Shown here: piece by piece, positions 2,749 through 61,523 of the stretch
Position numbering within the stretch: the stretch's first letter is position 1
Layout of the letters: every line of letters begins with the position of its first letter
Assembly: GCA_016186325.1 (NCBI GenBank)
Contig: JACPLW010000010.1
Span: forward strand, 22,856 to 86,855
Length of the DNA stretch: 64,000 nt
Source of the DNA: Parcubacteria group bacterium
Lineage (GTDB): Bacteria > Patescibacteriota > Minisyncoccia > UBA10092
Reading direction: 5' to 3'
Notes under the pieces: model-generated
What the model was told of the DNA's origin: nothing
The model's input: the letters and a program-made list of their open reading frames with translations, nothing else
Database searches by the model: none
Position numbers and translations under genes: made by a program

Positions 2749-2786
2749 TTATCCAGATAGTGTGCTATAATGGACCCTATAGACAT

Positions 2787-3125
2787 ATGAAGCGGATTCT
2801 TATTTCATTCTTTTTGTTTTTTTACTTTATGGTTGCTATCGTTACGGTATCGGCTCAAACAATTAGTATTCCCAATCCTCTGGTATCCGGCGACATCCCG
2901 ACTTTAATTGATAAAATCGCCTCCTGGCTTTTGGGAATAGGGACGGTCTTGGCGACTATCGTGATTTTATGGGCGGCCTTTCTCTTTATGACTTCCGGCG
3001 GGAACAAAGACAAGGTGACTCAAGCCAGACAGACATTGTGGTACGCGGTAATCGGCCTTACGGTTTTACTTTTAGCTAAAGGCGCGACACTGTTTATTCA
3101 AAATACTTTAAGCGGTAATTTCTAA
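2787..3125 (+). CDS. TrbC/VirB2-like pilin, paralog 2
   Basis: MKRILISFF...AAFLFMTSGGNKDKVTQARQTLWYAVIGL. Same architecture as the neighbouring genes. Start placed at the internal ATG. Confidence 0.5.
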   Translation: MKRILISFFLFFYFMVAIVTVSAQTISIPNPLVSGDIPTLIDKIASWLLGIGTVLATIVILWAAFLFMTSGGNKDKVTQARQTLWYAVIGLTVLLLAKGATLFIQNTLSGNF

Positions 3126-3202: not shown

Positions 3203-3553
3203 ATGAAAGAAAAATTTTTTAAGGGAGCGATCGTTGGCGTCGGTTTGGGCATGGCTTTATTGCCGTTTCTAGCGTTAGCAGCTACAGTGCTGCCGGGACC
3301 GATTATAACCAACCCCACACAGATTTCTGTATTGATTCAAAAAATTCTTAGTTGGATAGCCGGTATTATAATGGTGATTGCCGTGATTATGCTGCTTTTT
3401 TCGGCAATTTTGTACTTAACGGCCGGTGGCAGCGAAGATAGAGTTGGAAAAGCCAAAAGCTATTTGCTTTACGCTATTGTTGGCATTGTGGTGGCGCTTC
3501 TCACTTTCTCGGTTCAGCCATTTATTACTGCTGTTTTAGAGGGAAGGTTTTAA
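3203..3553 (+). CDS. TrbC/VirB2-like pilin, paralog 3
   Basis: LLFSAILYLTAGGSEDRVGKAKSYLLYAIVGI. Third tandem paralog. Confidence 0.5.
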   Translation: MKEKFFKGAIVGVGLGMALLPFLALAATVLPGPIITNPTQISVLIQKILSWIAGIIMVIAVIMLLFSAILYLTAGGSEDRVGKAKSYLLYAIVGIVVALLTFSVQPFITAVLEGRF

Positions 3554-3664: not shown

Positions 3665-3692
3665 TTTACAAAACAGCAGAAAATGGTATAAT
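3665..3692 (+). promoter_or_regulatory. Sigma70-like promoter for tRNA-Leu (TTTACA, 16-nt spacer, TGgTATAAT)
   Basis: A -35 TTTACA and an extended -10 TGGTATAAT ending about 14 nt before the tRNA 5' end. Confidence 0.5.
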
Positions 3693-3706: not shown

Positions 3707-3788
3707 GCGCCCGTGGTGAAATGGCAGACACGCTAGCTTTAGGAGCTAGTGCCGAAAGGCGTAGAGGTTCAAATCCTCTCGGGCGCAC
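3707..3788 (+). tRNA. tRNA-Leu (anticodon TAG), class II with a long variable arm
   Basis: Acceptor GCGCCCG pairs with CGGGCGC. The anticodon stem-loop is CTAGC-TTTAGGA-GCTAG, with a 13-nt variable arm and the T-arm AGAGGTTCAAATCCTCT. Confidence 0.8.
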
Positions 3789-3973
3789 TTTCATCGTCTC
3801 GTTGCCTGTATAGAGAAATGGAACTTTTTGTTGGTGAAAAATTAAATCTTCTGAAAAAGAAACAGGTTTTGAGGTGGTTGAAGAGAGGTTCTAATTAGCT
3901 ATTGCAAAACCAAATTTGTTATGGGACATTAGAATAAGTTTGGGCTCTTTTGAAAATCAAGAAAGGATAAGGG

Positions 3974-4825
3974 ATGTGGATAATAATTCTCATTCTGTTA
4001 CTTTTGGGAGGTTGTACGGTGGGTAAAACTCAGGACCTTTTTGAGGGAGAGTTTGTGATCAAATCCGATGGTATCTATACCTATGCTCATTATTACGGAC
4101 GCCCGGAAAGTAAACGAAGCGTCGTAATCGTAGGCATGAACCACGGCGGCGATAAGGAATACTTTGAGCAAATAGTAAAGCTTCTTGCAGATGTAGAGAT
4201 TGTGTTGTATGAGGGTTTACCGCCCGAACAAGAAGAAACAGCTGAGGAAATTGAAAAAGAGGAACAGGAAGATTTGCTGAATCTTGCGAGTGAAGATGTA
4301 GACGAGGCATTCTATGCTGCTATAAGGAGTTATTTCCGAAAAGCCCATAAGTTTTTACGGCTAGTTGGGGAGGGCAGTGCCTTTGATTATTCAAAGACCG
4401 GTTGGGAGTCTGGAGATGCGGAGTTTTTCGTGAGACTGAAAAATGATGAAAAATTGCAGAAATTTATGGCGGAACGCAGGAATGATCTTGCTCAGTTAAC
4501 ACCAGAGCGGAAAAGAGAAGTGGTAGAATTTGTCAGGAAAGCTTTGAAAAGCATTGAGAGTGGGCAGTTCACAAAAAAGGATTTTGGTGATGGCTTTGTT
4601 TTTTTCTGGTCTGATCAGAAACTCGCGAGCATATTCCTTGATGCGCTTGGCAAACCACGCGACGAGATTGTAATGGAACATTTTGACAGGATCATAAGCG
4701 AGAAAAATCCACACACCATTGGAATTAAGTTTGGAGCGGCACACATCGCTTATCAAAGGAAGTTGTTAGAACAGCACGGATACATCCTGAAGCGTTCGGT
4801 CGAACTAAAAAACATTGCTTTTTGA
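3974..4825 (+). CDS. Lipoprotein, possibly TraB/GumN family
   Basis: Lipobox LLLGGC at the N-terminus. VVIVGMNHGG near the N-terminus and FGAAHIAY near the C-terminus resemble the paired GxxH motifs of the TraB/GumN family. Weak call. Confidence 0.35.
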   Translation: MWIIILILLLLGGCTVGKTQDLFEGEFVIKSDGIYTYAHYYGRPESKRSVVIVGMNHGGDKEYFEQIVKLLADVEIVLYEGLPPEQEETAEEIEKEEQEDLLNLASEDVDEAFYAAIRSYFRKAHKFLRLVGEGSAFDYSKTGWESGDAEFFVRLKNDEKLQKFMAERRNDLAQLTPERKREVVEFVRKALKSIESGQFTKKDFGDGFVFFWSDQKLASIFLDALGKPRDEIVMEHFDRIISEKNPHTIGIKFGAAHIAYQRKLLEQHGYILKRSVELKNIAF

Positions 4826-4853
4826 GAACGGCACTGCCCGTTCTTTTCTTTTT
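4824..4853 (+). terminator. Rho-independent terminator
   Basis: gaacggcactgcccgttc hairpin followed by ttttcttttttt. Confidence 0.6.
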
Positions 4854-4876
4854 TATGAATGAGCTTTATGTATGTA

Positions 4877-4940
4877 GTGCGCATCCCGCCATAGCGGGAC
4901 GCCGCAAGGCATGGGAGTTCAAATCTCCCCCCGAGCACAA
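4877..4940 (+). other. tRNA-3'-half-like element E1: a GTCCCGC-type hairpin, a canonical T-arm and an acceptor 3' strand, with no D-arm
   Basis: tcccgccatagcggga hairpin, then GGGAGTTCAAATCTCCC (perfect T-arm), then CCGAGCAC-AAAA. No complementary 5' acceptor strand is present. It resembles the element at 22213-22290. Confidence 0.45.
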
Positions 4941-4946
4941 AATAAG

Positions 4947-5014
4947 AATAACCCCGCAGCTCCGACGCATACTGGTCGGAGCCCCGACTACAACGTCGGG
5001 GCTGCGGGGTTATT
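4947..5014. repeat. Family-B double-hairpin palindromic element (CTCCGAC...GTCGGAG / CCCCGAC...GTCGGGG), intergenic copy
   Basis: aataaccccgcagc[tccgacgcatactggtcgga][gccccgactacaacgtcggggc]tgcggggttatt: two hairpins nested inside an outer stem, sitting between convergent genes. Confidence 0.6.
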
Positions 5015-5468
5015 CTTCATGGTGTTTTATTTCTATCTTTTTGGTTTTGGTTCTTTCTGATTTCGGGAGTTTTATAGTGAGTACGCCGTTTTTCAGAGTA
5101 GCAATTGATTTATCGGTTTGAACGTCAACCGGCAGAATTATTGAACGGGAAAACGGTCCCCAATAACATTCCTGATAAAAATAATCATCTTTGATTACAG
5201 ACTCCTCTATTTCCCGCCGACCGCGAACGGTCACCATATCATTAGTAATAGCAATGTCTAAATTTTCCGGTTTGACTCCGGCAATGGTGGACTTTATTAC
5301 AATATCGGCGGGCGTCTGATAAACATCAATAGAGAGCTGTCCCTCTGTTTCGCCCGATTCCCAATTATTGATTTTTTCCATCTCTTCTTTTTCTTTCATA
5401 ATTTTCTTTTCGTTTTGGCCGTTATCAGAGGCATTTATCGGACCGATTAATTTTTCTAAAAAAGACAT
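5010..5468 (-). CDS. Hsp20/alpha-crystallin family small heat shock protein
   Basis: The C-terminal GVLTIKLPK and the overall alpha-crystallin domain pattern identify it. Confidence 0.75.
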   Translation of the reverse strand: MSFLEKLIGPINASDNGQNEKKIMKEKEEMEKINNWESGETEGQLSIDVYQTPADIVIKSTIAGVKPENLDIAITNDMVTVRGRREIEESVIKDDYFYQECYWGPFSRSIILPVDVQTDKSIATLKNGVLTIKLPKSERTKTKKIEIKHHEE

Positions 5469-5645
5469 AATGCTAAAAGTTTCTCTCGCTTTGCGAGATC
5501 TGGCGAAGCCAGATAAATCCTAATTCCTAATTTCTAAACTAATTATACTTTCTGTTCGGCCGCCGCGTCAACCCCGTTAGAAGTTTATTTTCAAAAACAT
5601 TAAATATTTTAATGTTTTATCAGTTTTAACTGAATCAACTCTATT

Positions 5646-6431
5646 TTAATTATCTGTTAGATTTCTAACGGGGTCAACTGTTATTTGTTGATAAGTTTTA
5701 TAGTGCTTGAGGCGATGGAAAAGATAGATAACTAAAGCCGCGGCACCGCCCAAGGTAATACCGGTTAAAAATACGCGCAAAAAATCATTCTCATTAGTTA
5801 TGAGAAAATTGTAAATGCCATGAAGAATTACAGCACTAAAGAGTCCAACAAGAATTAAGCGCGCGTCTTTTTTTACGAAATAATAGACAGCGAAAAAGTA
5901 TCCCGCAATCCCGGATGCCAAGCCGTGCAATGCTACGGCACTTATAAATCGTAAAGATACAAAATTAAGGGTTTCGCTTACGTAGCCGGGCGTGCCAAGC
6001 GGTATGTATGAAAAAATAGCAAAAACATTTTCTATTGCCGCAAAGCCTAAAGCGGCGGTAATGACGTAAATCATGCCATCAACCGGCTCGTCTAAAATCG
6101 GATTTTTGTTTAAAGCAAGATGAACCGCGCCGTATTTTGACGCCTCTTCTACTAGCGGCGCGATAAAAATCAAAAGCAGGATGCTTTCTATAGCAGGCAA
6201 CAACTCAAAGTAACCGAAAAATCTCGACAGAACCATTTCAAGAAAAATTACAAGCGGCGCCAAAGCGACGCCCATTAAAAATATTGTAAAAAGCCAATAT
6301 CGCGGCTCCGGGTGGTCGTCTTCCCTAAGATAAAAAAGTAGCCAAATCAAACTGGGAAGAACGGCTAGAATTATCGTTGGTATTAATGCGGACGGTTCTT
6401 GATTAAGCATTTTATTTCGGCCATTCTTCAA
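5646..6431 (-). CDS. PrsW-family intramembrane metalloprotease
   Basis: Multi-TM protein with the motifs EEASKY (EExxK), FAAIEN (FxxxE) and HGIYN (Hxxx[ND]). The true start may be the ATG near 6410, which would remove the overlap with valS. Confidence 0.55.
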   Translation of the reverse strand: MKNGRNKMLNQEPSALIPTIILAVLPSLIWLLFYLREDDHPEPRYWLFTIFLMGVALAPLVIFLEMVLSRFFGYFELLPAIESILLLIFIAPLVEEASKYGAVHLALNKNPILDEPVDGMIYVITAALGFAAIENVFAIFSYIPLGTPGYVSETLNFVSLRFISAVALHGLASGIAGYFFAVYYFVKKDARLILVGLFSAVILHGIYNFLITNENDFLRVFLTGITLGGAAALVIYLFHRLKHYKTYQQITVDPVRNLTDN

Positions 6432-8616
6432 TCATAATCGGTTTTCCCCGACGCTTTCGGTCGGGGCTCCGACCCCCGCTTTGCGGGGCGTCGGAGTTAT
6501 TCAATATTCCCCAAATTTCTTCGGTTAAAAAAGGAAGAAAGGGGTGGAGCAGTTTCAATAAATCTTCGTGGACTTTTATAAGGACTTCTTGAGTTTGCTG
6601 TCTTGCTTTTTCATCGGCAAGCTCCGACGCTTTGGTCGGAGCTCCGACTTCTTCAGAACGTCGGAGCTGTTTTTTTGCGGTTTCAATATAAATATCGGCG
6701 TATTCGTGCCAGAAAAAATCGTAAAGTTTATGAAGTGCCTGTCCAAACTCGTACTTTTCTATCCTGTTGCCGACTTCAACAATTGTTTTTTTGAGACCAC
6801 TTAAAATTTTCTTATCCGCTTCAGTTAAATTTTGATTTTTGCTTGCCCGCCGAAGCCTTGGCGTAGGCGGGATTTTTGAATTCACGTTTTGTTTTACAAA
6901 ACGCGTGGCGTTCCATATCTTATTACAGAATTTTTTGCCGGTTAACATCGCATCTTCATTAAACCGAATGTCCTGACTGCCGAGATTTTGGTACATCATA
7001 CCGAAGCGAGTAGCGTCAGCACCGTATTTTTCAATTAAATCAATCGGGTCAACACCGGTACCTCGAGATTTAGACATTATTTTACCTTCTTTATTAAGAA
7101 CCGTAGCGTGAATGTGTGTGGTGTTAAAAGGTGATTGGCCTGTAAATTCCAATCCTGAAAAAATCATTTTGGCAATCCAAATATCTCGAATATCTCTTGC
7201 TGAAGTAATAAAGTCGGTAGGATGGTATTTTTTAAGGTCGTTTGTTTTGTTGGGCCAGCCAAGTGTCGCAAAAGGCCAAAGCGCCGAAGAAAACCAAGTA
7301 TCCAAAACATCGGTTTCTCCCTCTAAAGGAATTTTGTGACCCCACCAAAGTTGGCGGGAAATATTCCAGTCCCTTTCATTTTTAAGGCGATTTAATAAAA
7401 CTTTCTCCCATTTTTGCGGGTGAATAATTGTTTTTTTCTTTTTTATTGCGTCAATTGCCAGTTTGGCAAGCTTTTCCATTTTCAAAAACCATTGCTCGGA
7501 CGGCAGAGGTTCAATGACCGAGTTACAGCGGTCGCAGCGGGCGATATTGTGCTCGTAATCTTCTATTTTTTCAATTAACCCGATGGCTTCAAGGTCTTTA
7601 ACTATTTGTTCGCGCGCTTCAGTCACTTTCATTCCCTTATAGCGCAAGCCGGCGTTCTCGTTCATTCGGCCGTGTTCATCAATTATAGTGATTGAAGGTA
7701 AGTTATGACGTTCCGCGATTTCAAAATCCGTTATATCGTGCGCCGGCGTAACCTTAATAATGCCGGTTCCAAATTCCGGGTCCACAGATTTATCTGCTAT
7801 TACCTTTATTTTAATTTTTTTGGTTTTAGCCGGCTGATTATTCGGCAAATCGTTGTCTATAGATTCTATCTCCAAATCTTTTCCCCAGTATTTTTTGTAA
7901 CGTTTGTCATTAGGGTGTACCGCTAAGGCAGTGTCGCCAAGTTTAGTTTCCGGTCTAGTCGTGGCGAGGGTGAGCGGTCCGTATTTGATAAAATAAAGTT
8001 TTGCGTGCTCCGGTATGTAGTCAACCTCTAGATCAGAGATTCCCGTGGCGCAGCGGACGCACCAATTAATAACGCGCTTGCCGCGATAAATCCAACCTTT
8101 TTTATAATAATGATTAAATGCTTCCACGACGGCTTTGGAGTAATCAGAATCCATAGTATATCTGGTTCGTGACCAGTCCGAGGATATGCCCAGCAATTTT
8201 AATTGGTCAAAAATAATATTGCCGTATTTTTCTTTCCACTCTTTAACTTTCTCAACAAATTTTTCCTGGCCTAGATCTTGGCGGCGCAAACCTTCTTTGC
8301 GAAGTTCTTTTTCAACAACATTTTGGGCAGAAATGCCGGCGTGGTCTATGCCCGGAAGCCAGAGCGTTTTAAAGCCCTTCATTCTTTTCATTCTCACCAA
8401 AATATCAACCTCGGTATTTTCCAAGACGTGGCCCATATGGAGCGAGCCGGTGATATTTGGCGGCGCCATCATCACCGAAAATTTCTTTTTTCTTTTTACG
8501 GCTTGCCCCGAAGAAGGCGGCGGCAGTTTATCAGGATTAAAAAAGCCCGATTCTTCCCAGAGCCGGTAAATTTTATCTTCAACTTCTTTTGGGTTATACG
8601 GAGAATCAAAGTTCAT
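6412..8616 (-). CDS. valS: Valyl-tRNA synthetase (class I). The C-terminal domain carries two in-frame palindromic-element insertions
   Basis: PPNITGSLHMGH (HIGH motif) and KIMSKS (KMSKS motif). Its coding sequence contains two family-B palindromic repeat copies (features at 6446-6496 and 6620-6667). Confidence 0.8.
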   Translation of the reverse strand: MNFDSPYNPKEVEDKIYRLWEESGFFNPDKLPPPSSGQAVKRKKKFSVMMAPPNITGSLHMGHVLENTEVDILVRMKRMKGFKTLWLPGIDHAGISAQNVVEKELRKEGLRRQDLGQEKFVEKVKEWKEKYGNIIFDQLKLLGISSDWSRTRYTMDSDYSKAVVEAFNHYYKKGWIYRGKRVINWCVRCATGISDLEVDYIPEHAKLYFIKYGPLTLATTRPETKLGDTALAVHPNDKRYKKYWGKDLEIESIDNDLPNNQPAKTKKIKIKVIADKSVDPEFGTGIIKVTPAHDITDFEIAERHNLPSITIIDEHGRMNENAGLRYKGMKVTEAREQIVKDLEAIGLIEKIEDYEHNIARCDRCNSVIEPLPSEQWFLKMEKLAKLAIDAIKKKKTIIHPQKWEKVLLNRLKNERDWNISRQLWWGHKIPLEGETDVLDTWFSSALWPFATLGWPNKTNDLKKYHPTDFITSARDIRDIWIAKMIFSGLEFTGQSPFNTTHIHATVLNKEGKIMSKSRGTGVDPIDLIEKYGADATRFGMMYQNLGSQDIRFNEDAMLTGKKFCNKIWNATRFVKQNVNSKIPPTPRLRRASKNQNLTEADKKILSGLKKTIVEVGNRIEKYEFGQALHKLYDFFWHEYADIYIETAKKQLRRSEEVGAPTKASELADEKARQQTQEVLIKVHEDLLKLLHPFLPFLTEEIWGILNNSDAPQSGGRSPDRKRRGKPIMIEEWPK
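6446..6496. repeat. Family-B palindromic element inserted in-frame within the valS 3' end
   Basis: ccccgacgctttcggtcggggctccgacccccgctttgcggggcgtcggag. It translates (minus strand) to ...APQSGGRSPDRKRRG.... Confidence 0.6.
6620..6667. repeat. Family-B palindromic element inserted in-frame within valS
   Basis: gctccgacgctttggtcggagctccgacttcttcagaacgtcggagc. It is nearly identical to the intergenic copy at 22435-22484 and translates to ...RRSEEVGAPTKASELAD.... Confidence 0.65.
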
Positions 8617-19248: not shown

Positions 19249-19827
19249 CTAAAAAAGCTTTTTTCTCAACAAGTCAATAAACGATTCATTTTCCTCGGTT
19301 TCTTCCAGATATCTGTTGAGAATTTTTCTTATGTACGTTTCATCGTTATTATAAAAGGGGATGATAAGAAGCGGCGTCAAATGTTTTTTAAAGTGAAAGG
19401 CAATTTCCCTTTCGTGAGTAGAGCTCTCTTCTTGGGAACTAAAGTCTTGTCCAGTTTGTTGCTCAAGTCTAGCAGGAAAAATCCAGAAGGATTCAAAATT
19501 TTCATATGGATAAAACTTACTGTCGATGTGAAGTCCTTGACTATCCAAACGGAAATCAATCAGCTCGCGCTTTTTATTTTTAATGGCGTATATAATAAAA
19601 GCCGCTAAAGCGATGATGATAATAAGAAGATAGTTTTTTAGGATAATCGAAAAAACAACGAGCGCCAAAGCCAGAATTCCTAAAGCCCAAAACCACTCTG
19701 AAGCTTTTGGCATATGGTCGGGTTCTTCAATCTGCCAGTTTATCCCGCCAAAGGCGGGGTCTACTTCTTCCGATGTGTTTTCATCGCGTATTTTTAGTTT
19801 TATTGTTTCATCTGGTGCGGGTATCAT
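19249..19827 (-). CDS. Hypothetical membrane protein
   Basis: 192-aa ORF with central TM helices. No recognisable family. Confidence 0.4.
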   Translation of the reverse strand: MIPAPDETIKLKIRDENTSEEVDPAFGGINWQIEEPDHMPKASEWFWALGILALALVVFSIILKNYLLIIIIALAAFIIYAIKNKKRELIDFRLDSQGLHIDSKFYPYENFESFWIFPARLEQQTGQDFSSQEESSTHEREIAFHFKKHLTPLLIIPFYNNDETYIRKILNRYLEETEENESFIDLLRKKLF

Positions 19828-22212: not shown

Positions 22213-22290
22213 TTTTGCGTTCTCGGAGGGATTCGAACCTCCAATAATCCCGCCAAGGCGGGATCGTGATACTCGCCCGCCCAAACTTTT
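22213..22290 (-). other. tRNA-3'-half-like element E2 (hairpin tcccgccttggcggga, T-arm GGAGGTTCGAATCCCTCC, acceptor 3' strand)
   Basis: No D-arm or matching 5' acceptor strand could be found. The architecture is shared with E1 at 4877-4940. Confidence 0.4.
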
Positions 22291-22291
22291 G

Positions 22292-22365
22292 CGCGCCCTG
22301 AGGGATTCGAACCCCCGACCCCTTGTTCCGAAGACAAGTGCTCTAATCCGCTGAGCTAAGGGCGC
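22292..22365 (-). tRNA. tRNA-Arg (anticodon TCG), flanked by a 19-bp perfect inverted repeat that extends the acceptor stem
   Basis: Minus-strand GCGCCCTTAGCTCAGCGGATTAGAGCACTTGTCTTCGGAACAAGGGGTCGGGGGTTCGAATCCCTCAGGGCGCG. The flanks cccgcccaaacttttgcgc and gcgcaaaagtttgggcggg are exact reverse complements. Confidence 0.75.
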
Positions 22366-22434
22366 AAAAGTTTGGGCGGGTCAATTTCACCACGAGGACA
22401 AAAACCTGTTGCCGCAGGTGACCGTTCTGTCCAA

Positions 22435-22484
22435 CTCCGACGCTTCTAGGTCGGAGCTCCGACTTTTTACTTAGAACGTCGGAG
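22435..22484. repeat. Family-B palindromic element, intergenic copy
   Basis: ctccgacgcttctaggtcggag ctccgactttttacttagaacgtcggag. It interrupts a degenerate tRNA-like 5' fragment (GCGCCCGTAGCTCAAC...). Confidence 0.6.
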
Positions 22485-22576
22485 TTGAGCTACGGGCGCA
22501 TTAAAATAGATTTATAAAATAACACAAAATTGCTTAAAAGTAAATATCCACACTCACCAATGAGTGTGGATATAAA

Positions 22577-32094: not shown

Positions 32095-32162
32095 GGGCTT
32101 TCTCAAAAAACTCCGAGCCCGATGAGGGTTCGGAGTTTTTTGTCAGAAAACCTTATCCCGCC

Positions 32163-32780
32163 ATGGCGGGATTAAAAAATTTTATGAAGTTTATATTAGG
32201 AAAAAAAATCGGGATGACTCAAGTTTATAAGGGAAACAACATTGTCCCCGTAACTTTAATAGAAAGCGGGTCTAATTTTGTTACTCAAGTCAGGACAAGA
32301 GATAAAGATGGTTATTCAGCTGTTCAATTGGGTTTTGGTGGAGCAAAAAAAACCAATAAACCAAGATTAGGCCATCTTAAAAATCTTCCCCAGTTAAAAC
32401 ATTTGAAAGAATTTAGAGTTGATTCCACCGAACTTAAAACAGGTGATGAAATAGATGTCTCTAATTTAAATGCCGGAGAGAAAGTAACGGTAGTAGCAAT
32501 TTCAAAAGGCAAGGGATTTCAGGGTGTTGTTAAAAGGCATGGATTTCATGGCGGGCCAAAAAGCCACGGTCAAAAAGACCGCCATCGCGCTCCCGGCTCT
32601 ATTGGCGCATCGTGGCCCCAGCATGTCATAAAGGGAATGAGAATGGCGGGCCGGACGGGCGGCGATAAAATAACCGTTAAAAATGTGGAAATTGTTGAAA
32701 TTGATAAAGAAAATAATATTATTGCTCTTAAGGGGGCGGTGCCGGGAAGGCGGGGGACTTTAGTTATGATAAAAAGTTAA
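32163..32780 (+). CDS. rplC: 50S ribosomal protein L3
   Basis: KKIGMTQVY...GFQGVVKRHGFHGG. Confidence 0.9.
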   Translation: MAGLKNFMKFILGKKIGMTQVYKGNNIVPVTLIESGSNFVTQVRTRDKDGYSAVQLGFGGAKKTNKPRLGHLKNLPQLKHLKEFRVDSTELKTGDEIDVSNLNAGEKVTVVAISKGKGFQGVVKRHGFHGGPKSHGQKDRHRAPGSIGASWPQHVIKGMRMAGRTGGDKITVKNVEIVEIDKENNIIALKGAVPGRRGTLVMIKS

Positions 32781-42950: not shown

Positions 42951-43097
42951 TAATGATTTTATATTTTATTCTCTTGCTTTCCTCGTCCCGCCCCAGCGAG
43001 CGGGACTCGGGGATTCGCGCTCGCTCGTCCCGCCAAGGCGGGACACCATGCCCGCTTCGCGCTCATAACCCGCTCGAGAATAAAATATAAAATCATT
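42951..43097. repeat. MITE-like structured element, family A copy 2. It exactly fills the secY-adk intergenic gap
   Basis: Terminal inverted repeats taatgattttatattttattctc and gagaataaaatataaaatcatta. Internal hairpins gtcccgccccagcgagcgggac and gtcccgccaaggcgggac. Confidence 0.6.
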
Positions 43098-43104
43098 ATC
43101 TGTA

Positions 43105-43731
43105 ATGGGTATATCTAAAAAATTAATTGCAATTATTTTACTTGGAAGGCCGGGTTCCGGCAAAGACACTCAAGCCAAACTTTTAGCAAAAAAGTTCGGC
43201 TTGGTTCATCTTATTTCAAGCAAACTCATTGAAGAATCTTTAAAATCTAAAGCAAAAATTATTAAACGCGATAGCAGGGCTTACAATGTGGAAAAAGAGC
43301 GCCGTATTCAAAAAAGCGGTTATTTAAATACCTCTGCTTTTGTGGCAGCTCTGGTAAAAGACGAAATTAAAAAAATCGCGCAGAAAGGTTTTGGATTGGT
43401 AATGAGCGGTTCTCCCAGAACTTTAAGAGAGTTTAAAGAAGAGGCGCCGATGCTTTTAAAACTTTACGGTAAAAATAATATTTATTTTTTTCATATTATA
43501 ATCAGTCCGAATGAGGTTTATATAAGGAATCTGAAACGCCACCGCAAAGATTTGCCCGAACTTGATTCAAGGAAAATAATTAAAAAACGGCTTGAAGTTT
43601 ACAGTCGCGACACCCTTCCGCTTATCAAGTATTTGAAATCTCAAAAAAGAGTCGCGGATATAAACGGCGAACAGTCAATAATGAAAATTCATTTGGATAT
43701 TTTGAAAGTTTTAATGCCGAAAGTAAAATAA
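43105..43731 (+). CDS. adk: Adenylate kinase-like protein (divergent)
   Basis: P-loop GRPGSGKDTQ and its position after secY. Confidence 0.6.
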   Translation: MGISKKLIAIILLGRPGSGKDTQAKLLAKKFGLVHLISSKLIEESLKSKAKIIKRDSRAYNVEKERRIQKSGYLNTSAFVAALVKDEIKKIAQKGFGLVMSGSPRTLREFKEEAPMLLKLYGKNNIYFFHIIISPNEVYIRNLKRHRKDLPELDSRKIIKKRLEVYSRDTLPLIKYLKSQKRVADINGEQSIMKIHLDILKVLMPKVK

Positions 43732-43734
43732 AAA

Positions 43735-43872
43735 ATAGTAAATTTATTTTCTGAAGCTTATGAAGCCATTTTAGCATGGTTACCCGCTAAGCGGGGATAA
43801 AATGAGCTTCATCGGACAGTGAGTCCCGCGCTGGCGGGACGAACGCGCGAAGAAAATAATTTTACTATTTTT
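43735..43872. repeat. MITE-like structured element, family A copy 3
   Basis: Terminal inverted repeats atagtaaatttattttct and agaaaataattttactat. The core ttcatcggacagtgagtcccgcgctggcgggacgaacgcgcga is near-identical to copy 1 (146-295). Hairpin 1 shows compensatory changes (cccgctaagcgggg against ccccgcagttgcgggg). Confidence 0.6.
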
Positions 43873-43895
43873 TATTAAATATCTAAAATAATAGG

Positions 43896-45147: not shown

Positions 45148-45585
45148 ATGAAGATTTTAGCTATTGATTACGGGAAAAAATGGATTGGGCTGGCGATTTC
45201 TGACGATGGGCGCCGGCTGGCTTTTGCTTATAAAACCTTGGAAAATAATTCCAAAACTTTTTCTGTTTTAAATGAAATAATAAAAAAAGAAGAAATTTAT
45301 AAAATAGTTATTGGCTTGCCTTTGAATAAAGAGATGAAACCGACGCAACAAACAACTGAAACGGAAAACTGGGCGCAAGAACTTATTAAAAAAGTTGCAA
45401 CTCCGACGCCTTTGGGTCGGAGCCCCGACCGGAACTCCGACGGTACCGTCGGAGAAAGCGTCGGGGTTGATTTTGAAAATGAAATTTTTACAAGCAAGGC
45501 GGCGGATAAACTCGGAGTAAAAAACCAGCACGCCGCCGCCGCCGCAATTTTTCTTCAGGATTATTTGGATAGAAATAACAAATAA
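45148..45585 (+). CDS. ruvX: Holliday-junction-resolvase-like protein RuvX/YqgF, with an in-frame family-B palindromic insertion
   Basis: MKILAIDYGKKWIGLAISD N-terminal RNase-H-like motif. The internal segment ...PTPLGRSPDRNSDGTVGESVGV... is encoded by the repeat at 45401-45466. Confidence 0.7.
   Translation: MKILAIDYGKKWIGLAISDDGRRLAFAYKTLENNSKTFSVLNEIIKKEEIYKIVIGLPLNKEMKPTQQTTETENWAQELIKKVATPTPLGRSPDRNSDGTVGESVGVDFENEIFTSKAADKLGVKNQHAAAAAIFLQDYLDRNNK
45401..45466. repeat. Family-B palindromic element (nested hairpins) inserted in-frame in ruvX
   Basis: ctccgacgcctttgggtcggag ccccgacc ggaa ctccgacggtaccgtcggag aaag cgtcgggg. Confidence 0.6.
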
Positions 45586-56507: not shown

Positions 56508-56575
56508 TGCGGGCCGGACGGGATTTGAACCCGCGATCTCTGTCGTGACAGGGCAGCGCTTTGAACCGCATAACC
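56508..56575 (-). other. Truncated tRNA 3' fragment (T-arm plus acceptor 3' strand only), related to but distinct from tRNA-Asp
   Basis: GAGATCGCGGGTTCAAATCCCGTCCGGCCCGCA against tRNA-Asp GAGATCGCCGGTTCGAATCCGGTCGCCCGCGCA. The stem positions differ by compensatory changes. No 5' half is present. Confidence 0.5.
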
Positions 56576-56644
56576 AGAAATGAAATGGAATTCGGAGTCG
56601 GCGCTTATCAGAGAGCGTTAAAAGAACTGGAGTTTATTGATTGA
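56573..56644 (+). repeat. 72-bp direct repeat of the 3' end of the 55296-55829 gene (about 94% identical)
   Basis: accagaaatgaaatggaattcggagtcggcgcttatcagagagcgttaaaagaactggagtttattgattga, against the same segment at 55758-55829. Confidence 0.7.
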
Positions 56645-61472: not shown

Positions 61473-61523
61473 AAGGTGGGCTACCCCGCAGTTGCGGGGT
61501 GCTCATAAATTTTAGCTAAATTT

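Follow-up and report, generated by a model that had tools for sequence, protein, structure and literature searches.

How does the 3′ half of a tRNA gene come to lie between two convergent protein genes, and what is such a piece? This question is raised by positions 4874–4937 of a 64,000-nt stretch of a Parcubacteria group bacterium genome (assembly GCA_016186325.1, contig JACPLW010000010.1, positions 22,856–86,855 of the forward strand). The whole stretch is called the window below, and its own numbering is used. An original prediction, made from the sequence alone, had described a tRNA-3′-half-like element at this site. Our analysis demonstrated that the element, here named E1, is the part of a class II tRNA-Leu from the D loop to the 3′ end, with the discriminator A73 and with the 5′ half missing. 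It is a non-functional remnant whose anticodon arm has been overwritten by a CCCGC…GCGGG palindrome, and on balance we regard it as the footprint of a homing-type tRNA gene replacement.

Structure of the tRNA-Leu remnant

E1 starts with remains of the D loop and of the 3′ strand of the D stem and continues through the palindrome, a class II variable arm, a T arm, and the 3′ strand of an acceptor stem (Table 1). The label "tRNA-3′-half-like" was thus the right description, to which the variable arm and about 10 nt of D loop and D stem are to be added. The GC-rich hairpin, the perfect T arm, and the acceptor-like strand of the original prediction were all found in place, as was the setting that it gave, downstream of the terminator of the 3974–4825 gene and facing a convergent gene, which encodes Hsp20. 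The palindrome (TCCCGCCATAGCGGGA) measures 16 nt, compared with 17 nt for an anticodon arm, and closes with a loop of 4–6 nt; the 7-nt anticodon loop with U33 and the anticodon is absent. E1 therefore has neither the two-stranded, 7-bp acceptor stem nor the 5-bp anticodon stem with a 7-nt loop of a canonical tRNA. The 5′ acceptor strand GCTCGGG, or a near match to it, was absent at the right distance 5′ of E1, where the 22 nt upstream read TGAATGAGCTTTATGTATGTAG. Neither GCTCGGG nor a D-stem partner was found in the stretches read upstream of E1, of the gene block that precedes it, and of the tRNA-Leu gene farther upstream.

A complete tRNA at E1 was looked for with standard tools. ARAGORN called none, and Rfam RF00005 gave no match at E1, either at the gathering score or, on a 1.8-kb stretch, at E ≤ 10. 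For other known RNA families, the same two Rfam settings gave only chance-level matches, such as F6 sRNA (33.8 against a gathering score of 46), which fell on the terminator hairpin, and YrlA (19.2 bits against 69), which was out of register. E1 lies directly behind the terminator of the upstream gene, and no promoter match was found 5′ of it. Together with the missing 5′ acceptor strand, this makes the processed small RNA of the original prediction unlikely for E1. The stretch covered by the original prediction folded far better than shuffles, at −84.3 kcal/mol (z = −9.6). Logan unitigs from three separate sequencing runs matched window positions 3723–4939 at 100% identity, and the sequence is therefore not an assembly artefact of a metagenome-assembled genome. 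In function, E1 is an ordinary dead relic.

The window carries a functional tRNA-Leu(TAG) on the same strand 1.1 kb 5′ of E1, a distance that would shrink to about 85 nt without the intervening ~1.06-kb block (3792–4847). This gene reads GGCAGA CAC G, anticodon arm, variable arm TGCCGAAAGGCGT, T arm AGAGG-TTCAAAT-CCTCT, and CGGGCGC A. E1 matched it at 48 of 69 aligned bases, with GGGAG instead of AGAGG in the T stem and CCCGAGC instead of CGGGCGC in the acceptor strand. On these differences, E1 was rejected as a duplicate of the 3′ end of the neighboring gene.

Orthologous tRNA-Leu loci in related Parcubacteria

A metagenome scan for the palindrome followed, after a gap of 15–22 nt, by a T loop recovered the orthologous loci L100/L121 and L105. 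The promoter region is common to these loci and the window, and Hsp20 and the genes beyond it are 72–84% identical; Hsp20 anchors the orthology with L100, L105, and L121. The tRNA-Leu(GAG) of a Sungbacteria locus, with the acceptor strand CCCGCGC, was dropped as a candidate parent of E1, the true orthologous locus being the match of the metagenome scan.

L100 and L105 show a complete tRNA gene nested inside a palindrome-disabled one. In L100, the homologous promoter region is followed by the old 5′ part of a tRNA (GCGCCCGTGGTGAAAT), a 30-nt spacer (CTTGTCCGCCTAAACTTTTGTGCATTATGT), a complete tRNA-Leu(TAG), a 20-nt spacer (CAAAAGTTTTGGAGGATAAA), and then GCAGACACG, the palindrome TCCCGCCGCGGCGGGA, the variable arm TGCCGCAAGGCGT, AGAGG-TTCAAAT-CCTCT, CGGGCGC A, the terminator, and Hsp20. 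L105 has the same order, again with the outer 5′ part behind the homologous promoter region and with tRNA-Leu(TAG) as the inner gene.

Two alleles could be distinguished at this locus. Allele B, the functional gene of the window, has the acceptor stem GCGCCCG/CGGGCGC and the T stem AGAGG/CCTCT, while allele A, the functional inner gene of L100, reads GCTCGGG … GGGAG-TTCGAGT-CTCCC CCCGAGC A. The disabled outer tRNA of L100 agreed with allele B of the window over the 5′ part (16/16), the T arm and acceptor strand (25/25), and the variable arm (12/13); outside the anticodon arm, only that one variable-arm base and one missing D-loop G differ. Conversely, E1 shares the T stem, the acceptor strand, A73, and the CAAAA trailer with allele A, and its 3′ end including the trailer is that of the functional type-A tRNA-Leu(TAG) of both L100 and L105. 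E1 was also 89.6% identical over 48 nt, with 17/17 in the T arm, to the old fragment that lies at the same place in L105, beside the Hsp20 terminator. The roles of the two alleles are therefore swapped between the genomes: what is functional in the window is disabled in L100, and the allele that is functional in L100 is the one left as E1. Different alleles win and lose at the Leu locus in related genomes.

A tandem form was present in L111, L119, L122, L128, and L036, where a Leu, Ser, or Arg tRNA is followed by one or two stumps that include the trailer; the second copy in L111 carries changes in the T loop and acceptor strand. As a separate observation, the tRNA-Leu(TAG) genes of close Parcubacteria (L100, L105, L111, L119, and the window) comprise at least five acceptor alleles (GCGCCCG, GCTCGGG, GGGCAGG, GCCGAGG, and GGGCGAG), with T stems that are also very different. 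Such divergence of acceptor and T stems among orthologous tRNAs is unusual.

A second remnant nested with tRNA-Arg

The original prediction had also placed an element of the same architecture at 22213–22290, between tRNA-Lys and tRNA-Arg. This element, E2, was recovered on the reverse strand (22275–22218). It proved not to be a lone 3′ half, since its 5′ part lies beyond tRNA-Arg(TCG), at 22399–22381. The outer pieces jointly form a tRNA-Arg that can be aligned to the functional tRNA-Arg(TCG) of the Patescibacteria genome L036, and the functional tRNA-Arg(TCG) of the window, a different allele, is nested in the D loop of this old gene. An inverted repeat of 15–16 bp, ACCCGCCCAAACTTTT (22381–22366) and AAAAGTTTGGGCGGG (22290–22276), brackets the nested gene and is paired in the minimum-free-energy fold; its first A is at the same time the last base of AAATTGA in the old 5′ part. 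The nested unit folded as predicted (z = −5.5). The E2 palindrome (TCCCGCCTTGGCGGGA) again replaces the anticodon arm. One A·C mismatch in the T stem and one C·A mismatch between the acceptor strand and the 5′ part indicate that the outer tRNA-Arg is decaying.

L036 has the same synteny of tRNA-Arg, fragment, and tRNA-Lys, and its fragment was identical to E2 at 54 of 60 positions. It is a copy of L036's own tRNA-Arg from the D loop on, with the palindrome in place of GCTGGCTTCGGACCAGC and with a 1-nt deletion.

Further tRNA-like pieces were noted. Next to the old tRNA-Arg, a third 5′ part without a T arm was read from the sequence (Table 1); it holds a family-B double hairpin in the D loop and the 16-nt hairpin ACCTG CGGCAA CAGGT at the anticodon-arm place. 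At 56518–56576 on the reverse strand, 3′ of tRNA-Met and tRNA-Asp, lies a partial tRNA-like sequence that scored 29.1 bits in Rfam, exactly the threshold, over model positions 8–63. Its T arm and 3′ strand (CCGGCCC G) are good, and its anticodon region forms a 4-bp stem closed by a CACG tetraloop; it lacks a 5′ acceptor strand and may be another disabled tRNA copy. In L036 (5330–5440, reverse strand), a 5′ duplicate of tRNA-Lys(CTT) precedes that tRNA, with the anticodon arm replaced by the hairpin G TCCTCC CAAG GAGGA T. This closed hairpin is a different one; therefore, the replacement hairpin has sequence variants.

Palindrome-marked tRNA copies in other phyla

The original prediction proposed a search for the hairpin-plus-T-arm pattern, which would have spoken against it had the pattern been unique. 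The pattern is not unique. A scan of GTDB genomes (one genome per species, gap of 4–16 nt) gave 92 loci; class II fragments lie outside this range, the gap in E1 being 17 nt. Some of the 92 loci were true tRNA-Ser genes, where the hairpin serves as the variable arm, and some were an unrelated proteobacterial repeat. About 35 matches of the form GGAT-TCCCGCC..GCGGGA-ATGAC belonged to this repeat and were set aside. After removal of the unrelated CGCGGGAATGAC repeat class, 126 palindrome-plus-T-loop matches from the GTDB genomes and JGI metagenomes were counted. In 87 of these, the match was a fragment and its locus also contained a canonical tRNA. Local alignment matched the T arm and acceptor strand of the fragment to that tRNA in 62 of the 87, and in 60 of these 62 the tRNA lay upstream on the same strand. 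The same pattern had no match among the 2.9 million viral contigs of IMG/VR.

The palindrome stands at the anticodon-arm place in Leu-type (L100, L105, L111, L119, and L128), Ser-type (L122), and Arg-type fragments (L036 and E2), as well as in Pro-type copies. Stumps of the fMet type, found in Verrucomicrobiota, Acidobacteriota, Bdellovibrionota, and the candidate phyla radiation (CPR), read GGCTCATAA, palindrome, TC, T arm, and CCCCGCAACCA. Those of the Pro type, found in Bacteroidota and Calditrichota and often in tandem arrays, read AGCGCG, palindrome, AGGTC, T arm, and CACCCCGAC; some full-length Pro-type units were called "tRNA-???" with a 2-base anticodon by ARAGORN. Which segment is replaced depends on the tRNA type: in fMet only the 3′ strand, in L131 the 5′ strand, and in L076 and L140 the D loop. 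At least one strand of the anticodon stem is lost to the palindrome in every case. In the Leu-type fragments read, all T stems were perfect.

Tandem arrays of pseudo-tRNAs with the palindrome were observed in L035 (2554–3488), L071 (4975–5659), L131 (768–1415), and L081 (5560–5740), with periods of 60, 99–118, 121, and about 172 nt. In L035, four full-length units were called "tRNA-???" with 6-nt loops by ARAGORN and scored 34–47 bits in Rfam. Isolates of Flavobacterium and Sediminibacterium (for example L009, L018, and L049) are also among the carriers of such arrays.

Small GIY-YIG genes beside palindrome-marked tRNAs

In other lineages, the cargo next to such stumps is a mini GIY-YIG nuclease gene. 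The 127 loci selected by the palindrome contain 49 small GIY-YIG open reading frames (ORFs; PF01541), of which the 92 genome loci account for 48, and in 35 of the 49 a palindrome followed within 170 nt downstream. The proteins have about 80–95 aa (roughly 85 aa) and consist of the bare Slx1/YhbQ-like catalytic domain without a DNA-binding domain; we presume that this bare domain might be structure-specific. A profile built from 12 of the ORFs retrieved 2876 database proteins at E ≤ 1e-10. One member of the family, P0026, is from Falkowbacteria.

Because the other loci had been selected by the palindrome, five loci (L133, L140, L141, L142, and L145) were fetched by the GIY-YIG protein alone. 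In all five, the ORF lies on or beside a tRNA gene, and in all five the palindrome is present, either exactly or as the CCCGC/GCGGG core. It lies within a recognizable dead tRNA copy in L133, L140, L141, and L145, while L142 has two palindromes just upstream of the ORF. The variants of L142 and L145 retain the core, so the core sequence and not pairing alone is conserved. In L133, the ORF starts at the last bases of a tRNA-fMet, and its tail duplicates the tRNA from the D loop to the anticodon loop. Next comes TCCCGCCGCGGCGGGA in place of CCCGAAGG, and then the T arm and acceptor strand; the duplicated fragment begins in the D loop, like E1 and E2. In L141, as in L001, the palindrome forms the anticodon arm of an old tRNA-Gln that is cut in the T loop and followed by the ORF, the tail of which overlaps a functional tRNA-Gln with the stop codon in the D loop. 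In L140, the old copy carries palindromes both in its D loop and at the anticodon position. L081 combines tRNA-fMet, three 60-nt stump units, an ORF for an 88-aa GIY-YIG protein (PF01541) that stops at the TAA of CTCATAA, and another stump.

The overlaps of ORFs and tRNAs lie at 1428–1820 in L133, at about 900–1340 in L140 and L141, and at 5483–6070 in L081. The anticodon loop CTCATAA supplies its TAA as the stop codon in fMet types, as the D loop GGTAAG does in Gln types, and in L133 the ATG of the ORF overlaps the 3′ end of the tRNA. Owing to these shared bases, maturation of the downstream tRNA by RNase P would deprive the ORF of its stop codon.

Proposed mechanism and alternative explanations

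A recurrent architecture of working tRNA, optional cargo, and a same-type stump with the palindrome is evident from these loci. We define here the class of GIY-YIG-associated tRNA replacement elements by three features. A partial tRNA copy with the anticodon stem replaced by a palindrome (T/C)CCCGC(C)-N2-4-(G)GCGGG(A/G) was found in the window in E1 (4884–4899) and E2 (22248–22263). A functional tRNA of the same type and strand lies nearby in both cases, as tRNA-Leu(TAG) for E1 and as the nested tRNA-Arg(TCG) for E2. The third feature, a GIY-YIG ORF adjoining or overlapping the tRNA sequences, is absent from the window.

For E1 and E2, we infer a nuclease-driven, homing-type origin. A cassette with a working copy of the same tRNA, which elsewhere also brings the small GIY-YIG gene, would arrive at a resident gene. 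The resident tRNA gene would be broken in the D loop or T loop, and the break would be repaired from the element-bearing allele, with short conserved tRNA segments and the flanks serving as homology. The working copy would thereby be installed, and the stump left of the resident gene would retain T arm and acceptor strand, its anticodon stem having given way to the palindrome. In the window, the working copy would be tRNA-Leu(TAG) at 3707–3788, next to which the 1.06-kb lipoprotein gene block would have been inserted later. E2 would be the tRNA-Arg(TCG) case in the nested state, with the old 5′ part, the new tRNA, and the old 3′ part with the palindrome. Because the palindrome always removes anticodon-stem strands, it probably acts at the DNA level, serving either as the cassette's conserved end or immunity patch or as the working site of the nuclease.

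A broader proposal, which we put forward tentatively, is that widespread selfish elements overwrite bacterial tRNA genes by means of a cassette that carries a working tRNA or its 3′ part and often an ~85-aa GIY-YIG protein, leaving the palindrome stump behind. Repeated rounds would then yield tRNA-in-tRNA nesting, stump arrays, and a fast turnover of acceptor and T-stem alleles, and the window would hold two nuclease-less footprints, Leu and Arg. In its strongest version, the outer tRNA of a nested pair would still be a functional scaffold without an anticodon, which would explain the perfectly compensated stems.

Several observations weigh against the homing-type reading. No GIY-YIG gene was found in the 64-kb window with a profile of 45 members searched against ORFs of at least 40 aa (best E = 4.2), and none lies next to the Leu- and Arg-type fragments of L036, L100, L105, and L111; the nuclease would therefore have acted in trans or been lost. 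The genome and metagenome scans required the exact palindrome, so that their counts are biased; the five protein-first loci alone are free of this bias. The reading calls for two separate lesions, a D-loop break or insertion and the palindrome, and no simple one-step model gives both. Allele B of the window stands directly behind the ancestral promoter, yet E1 shows allele-A features, and the allele-A 5′ part was not found in the stretches read at the window Leu locus. No single consistent history was derived that links the window state, with B intact and an A-type stump, to the L100 state, with A nested in B. Between the outer halves of L100 and L105 there are six pair changes, all fully compensated, and a single further difference, which fits independent invasions of two alleles or a continuing selection on pairing, as in a functional RNA. 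Finally, CCCGC-N2-10-GCGGG hairpins occur at 14 sites in the window against 0.43 expected, an excess of about 30-fold, and one of them (19744) lies inside an ORF.

This abundance makes it conceivable that the palindrome is an independent selfish repeat of the repetitive extragenic palindrome (REP) or Rickettsia palindromic element (RPE) type that overwrote redundant or dead tRNA duplicates of ordinary tandem duplication or recombination, without any nuclease. We consider this rather unlikely, and it is the main rival, the other three being weaker. The hairpin also lies outside tRNA contexts (245, 32156, 43028, and 43824), family B (see below) shows the same selfish-repeat behavior, and the profile search left the window without a GIY-YIG gene. 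However, the palindrome sits at the same place in dead tRNA copies of Verrucomicrobiota, Acidobacteriota, Bacteroidota, Calditrichota, Bdellovibrionota, and several CPR lineages and beside GIY-YIG genes in 5/5 protein-first loci, and a repeat spreading within one genome leaves this cross-phylum conservation and the fixed anticodon-stem position unexplained. The SINE-like (short interspersed nuclear element) repeat of the original prediction is not supported, as the copies are not dispersed but each adjoins a same-type tRNA, and E1 lacks a 5′ head and an A-rich or simple-repeat tail. Slightly less probable than the independent repeat is that the palindrome-bearing pieces are functional RNAs, the nested outer "tRNA" (acceptor stem, D stem, long leader–trailer helix, closed hairpin, and T arm) being an anticodon-less scaffold for processing of the inner pre-tRNA by RNase P and RNase Z, or a decoy, with E1 as a degenerate case. 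The outer halves of L100 and L105 keep 7/7 acceptor pairs and 5/5 T-stem pairs through their six double compensated changes, the palindrome of 16–18 nt comes near the 17-nt anticodon arm, and the predicted fold of the nested Arg unit and the perfect T stems of the Leu-type fragments agree with this. Nevertheless, the E1, L036, and L111 fragments have no 5′ acceptor strand, E2 is mismatched in both stems, and E1 lies behind a terminator without a promoter match. The compensated differences are explained equally well by an invasion of two pre-existing functional alleles, and the replacement of different segments in different tRNA types is more in line with an anticodon stem being destroyed than with a shape being kept.

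That E1 is an attR or attL relic of an island integrated in tRNA-Leu by a tyrosine or serine integrase, with the 283-aa gene as the remainder of the island, appears very improbable. The order of tRNA, cargo gene, and same-strand 3′ tRNA fragment is the classical signature of such an event, and the 283-aa block occurs in other neighborhoods in relatives. On the other hand, E1 does not repeat the 3′ end of the tRNA beside it (48/69, with differing T stem and acceptor strand), starts within the D loop, and carries a foreign palindrome midway. The orthologous loci have the fragment without any island, no integrase was found by Pfam in the five flanking ORFs, the scan being confined to these ORFs, and the pattern is absent from the viral contigs. 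The attachment site of the original prediction is thus not sustained, although "relic" was the closest of its three guesses: the relic is a disabled tRNA copy. Least probable is a genuine tRNA gene at E1 that standard tools missed because of an unusual intron or a split or permuted layout. CPR genomes are known for insertions in RNA genes, and the T arm, variable arm, acceptor strand, and discriminator of E1 are all well formed. Against this stand the missing GCTCGGG and D-stem partner in the stretches read, the lack of a 7-nt anticodon loop, the functional tRNA-Leu(TAG) that is already present 1.1 kb upstream, and the orthologues of E1, which are clearly disabled copies. The homing-type replacement thus remains our preferred reading.

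Neighboring genes and unrelated repeats

The block between tRNA-Leu and E1 consists of a leader, a 283-aa ORF, and a terminator (Table 1). The protein has a lipoprotein-like N-terminus and a "GAAH" motif and matched no Pfam domain, and it was rejected as a mobility protein on these grounds. No 283-aa block lies between tRNA and Hsp20 in the orthologous loci L100, L105, and L121. The counterpart of the block in L093 has different neighbors and no tRNA, homologues of the gene in relatives occupy unrelated neighborhoods, and synteny through the protein gave no lead to E1. The block is later cargo outside the element proper. Its leader contains the GAGGTTCTAA motif, and about 100 nt of it (window 3792–3894) recur in L093 at 487–588 and 2319–2420; in L093, 110-bp direct repeats with the same motif (2209–2318 and 3384–3495) flank the 283-aa gene. 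The Pfam scan of the five flanking ORFs (2760–3125, 3203–3553, 3974–4825, 5010–5468, and 5646–6431) revealed type IV secretion system pilins, Hsp20, and PrsW.

Table 1. Features of the tRNA-Leu and tRNA-Arg loci in the window.
Feature	Position	Strand	Details
Promoter-like site	3665..3692	+	TTTACA-16-TATAAT with TG; 5′ of functional tRNA-Leu
Functional tRNA-Leu(TAG), allele B	3707..3788	+	ARAGORN; Rfam 58.7 bits
Movable block	3792..4847	+	~180-nt leader, 283-aa lipoprotein-like ORF, and terminator; 83% identity to L093 2319–3374
283-aa ORF	3974..4825	+	Own terminator at 4824–4845
E1, D loop and D-stem 3′ strand remains	4874..4883	+	GTAG TGC G CA; left edge of E1; aligned to type-A tRNA-Leu of L100
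E1, palindrome	4884..4899	+	TCCCGCC-ATA-GCGGGA; in place of anticodon arm
E1, class II variable arm	4900..4912	+	C GCC GCAA GGC AT (CGCCGCAAGGCAT), 13 nt; length and shape as in window tRNA-Leu
E1, T arm	4913..4929	+	GGGAG-TTCAAAT-CTCCC; fully paired; conforms to canonical GTTCRANYC T loop
E1, acceptor 3′ strand and discriminator	4930..4937	+	CCCGAGC + A; without partner strand
Bidirectional terminator	4944..5017	.	Common to 283-aa gene and Hsp20; 16-bp outer stem with family B in the loop
Family-B double hairpin	4960..5001		CTCCGAC-N8-GTCGGAG, CCCCGAC-N6-GTCGGGG; in terminator loop
Hsp20 gene, convergent	5010..5468	-	PF00011, E = 3.7e-19; 81% DNA identity to L100 406–750
E2 (old tRNA-Arg 3′ part)	22275..22218	-	CGAGTAT CAC G A, TCCCGCCTTGGCGGGA, TTATT, GGAGG-TTCGAAT-CCCTC, CGAGAAC, G
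E2, palindrome	22263..22248	-	Replaces anticodon arm
Functional tRNA-Arg(TCG)	22365..22291	-	ARAGORN; Rfam 67.6 bits; nested in D loop of old tRNA-Arg
Old tRNA-Arg 5′ part	22399..22381	-	GTCCTCG TG GTG AAATTGA; acceptor 5′ strand, D-stem 5′ strand, half D loop; aligns to L036 tRNA-Arg(TCG)
Third degenerate tRNA 5′ part	22401..22499	-	GCGCCCG TA GCTC AA…; read from sequence; no T arm

The family-B double hairpin follows E1 and occupies the loop of the terminator that serves both the 283-aa gene and Hsp20, and the original prediction had joined the two into one composite structure, with family B inside a 14-bp outer stem. The enclosing stem was found, with a length of 16 bp (AAGAATAACCCCGCAG, 4944–4959, pairing with CTGCGGGGTTATTCTT, 5002–5017). 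The composite did not hold up: family B is independent of the tRNA remnant, occurring also in ORFs and being absent from the homologous terminator of L100, which is a plain hairpin. Its consensus is (G)CYCCGAC-N8-9-GTCGGRG CYCCGAC-N6-28-GTCGGRG. The window has 12 occurrences of CCGAC…GTCGG and six sites of family B, against 0.35 expected. Copies at 6624–6664 and 45403–45464 lie inside long ORFs and are apparently read through as coding; the translation at the 45403 copy contains ATPTPLGRSPDRNSDGTVGESVGVDFEN. A family-B-like match at 2116–2163 of L100, aligned to window 22435–22487, indicated that such elements are present in that genome too. As multiple dispersed short palindromes with presence or absence at homologous sites, family B is a mobile palindrome of the REP/RPE type, one copy of which landed in the Hsp20 terminator loop. 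Its adjacency to E1 is coincidental.

The E1-type hairpin pattern itself gave 14 strand-matches at 7 sites in the window, against 0.93 expected. The 14 CCCGC-N2-10-GCGGG hairpins include those at 32156–32171, 19744–19758, 6475–6487, and 61485–61498, and one lies 5′ of rplC. Two copies of a composite palindromic element of about 150 nt lie at 140–300 and 43735–43885. They share the core gaagcttatgaa…ttttag…CCCGC..GCGGG…ttcatcggacag.gag TCCCGCGCTGGCGGGA cga.cgcgcga, while their AT-rich outer stems differ between the copies, each being self-complementary. The element could be a structured RNA or a miniature inverted-repeat transposable element (MITE)-like element. Another palindromic element, at 42955–43105 just 5′ of the adenylate kinase gene, has 24-nt AT-rich terminal inverted repeats around two CCCGC-type hairpins and holds GCTCATAACCCG, the anticodon loop plus stem motif of initiator tRNA.

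Comparison with known systems and significance

The closest parallel is offered by free-standing GIY-YIG homing endonuclease genes, such as SegB in the tRNA cluster of phage T4 and the relatives of Seg and I-TevI. In both systems, a small GIY-YIG gene lies in or next to tRNA genes, the neighboring tRNA region is apparently co-inherited, and the target gene is functional in the element-bearing allele. Unlike SegB-type genes, the genes described here encode proteins of about 80–95 aa, are chromosomal, and occur in many phyla, with a palindrome pattern that is absent from viral contigs. In addition, the ORF overlaps tRNA sequence, with the stop in the anticodon or D loop, a partial tRNA duplicate bears the conserved palindrome, and the window has no such gene.

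Williams reportedly distinguished, in 2002, sublocation classes of tRNA-gene-targeting integrative elements that leave a duplicated 3′ tRNA segment. The window resembles these in having a working tRNA, same-strand cargo, and then a 3′ fragment of a same-type tRNA. It differs from them in that no integrase was seen in the five ORFs scanned, the fragment extends from the D loop, the palindrome stands in for the anticodon stem, and the allele may differ from that of the working tRNA; moreover, tRNA-in-tRNA nesting and tandem arrays with periods of 60–121 nt occur here without an island. Like REP sequences, bacterial interspersed mosaic elements (BIMEs), and RPEs, family B and the CCCGC palindromes are short, GC-rich, and over-represented and are found at terminators and in ORFs or RNA genes. 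In contrast to REP and RPE, the CCCGC palindrome stands at a specific place within dead tRNA copies and is conserved across phyla. No REP-associated tyrosine transposase (RAYT, TnpA-REP type) was seen, although no search aimed at one was made.

Split, permuted, and multi-intron tRNA genes are found in the archaea Nanoarchaeum, Caldivirga, and Thermoproteales. The nested loci resemble these in their interruption at a non-canonical position (the D loop) and in their complementary flanks. However, the host is bacterial (Parcubacteria), no bulge-helix-bulge is evident in the sequences read, and the "insert" is a complete tRNA; the interrupted gene lacks an anticodon loop, so no decoding tRNA can come from it. 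E1 also recalls tRNA-like RNAs such as YrlA, mascRNA, and the tRNA-like domain of transfer-messenger RNA, which have a T arm and an acceptor-like sequence but no decoding anticodon loop. It differs from them in giving no significant Rfam match and in lacking a 5′ strand for any acceptor helix.

No description of GIY-YIG genes with palindrome-marked tRNA fragments was found in the full-text literature searched, the coverage of which was incomplete so that a prior description is possible, or in the 2006 survey of the GIY-YIG superfamily. The variant of homing or tRNA-targeted mobility behind E1 is thus probably undescribed. If the proposed replacement is correct, essential tRNA genes in many bacterial phyla would be repeatedly replaced by a homing-like process that leaves a recognizable scar. 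Such a process would account for orphan tRNA fragments, for the "tRNA-???" calls that have 6-nt loops, and for tandem arrays of pseudo-tRNAs, as well as for the very different acceptor and T stems of one isoacceptor among close relatives. It would also give a testable role to a large unannotated family of mini GIY-YIG proteins and provide a simple annotation marker for displaced tRNA copies. For the small genomes of CPR bacteria, it would mean that even single-copy tRNA loci are sites of mobile DNA turnover.

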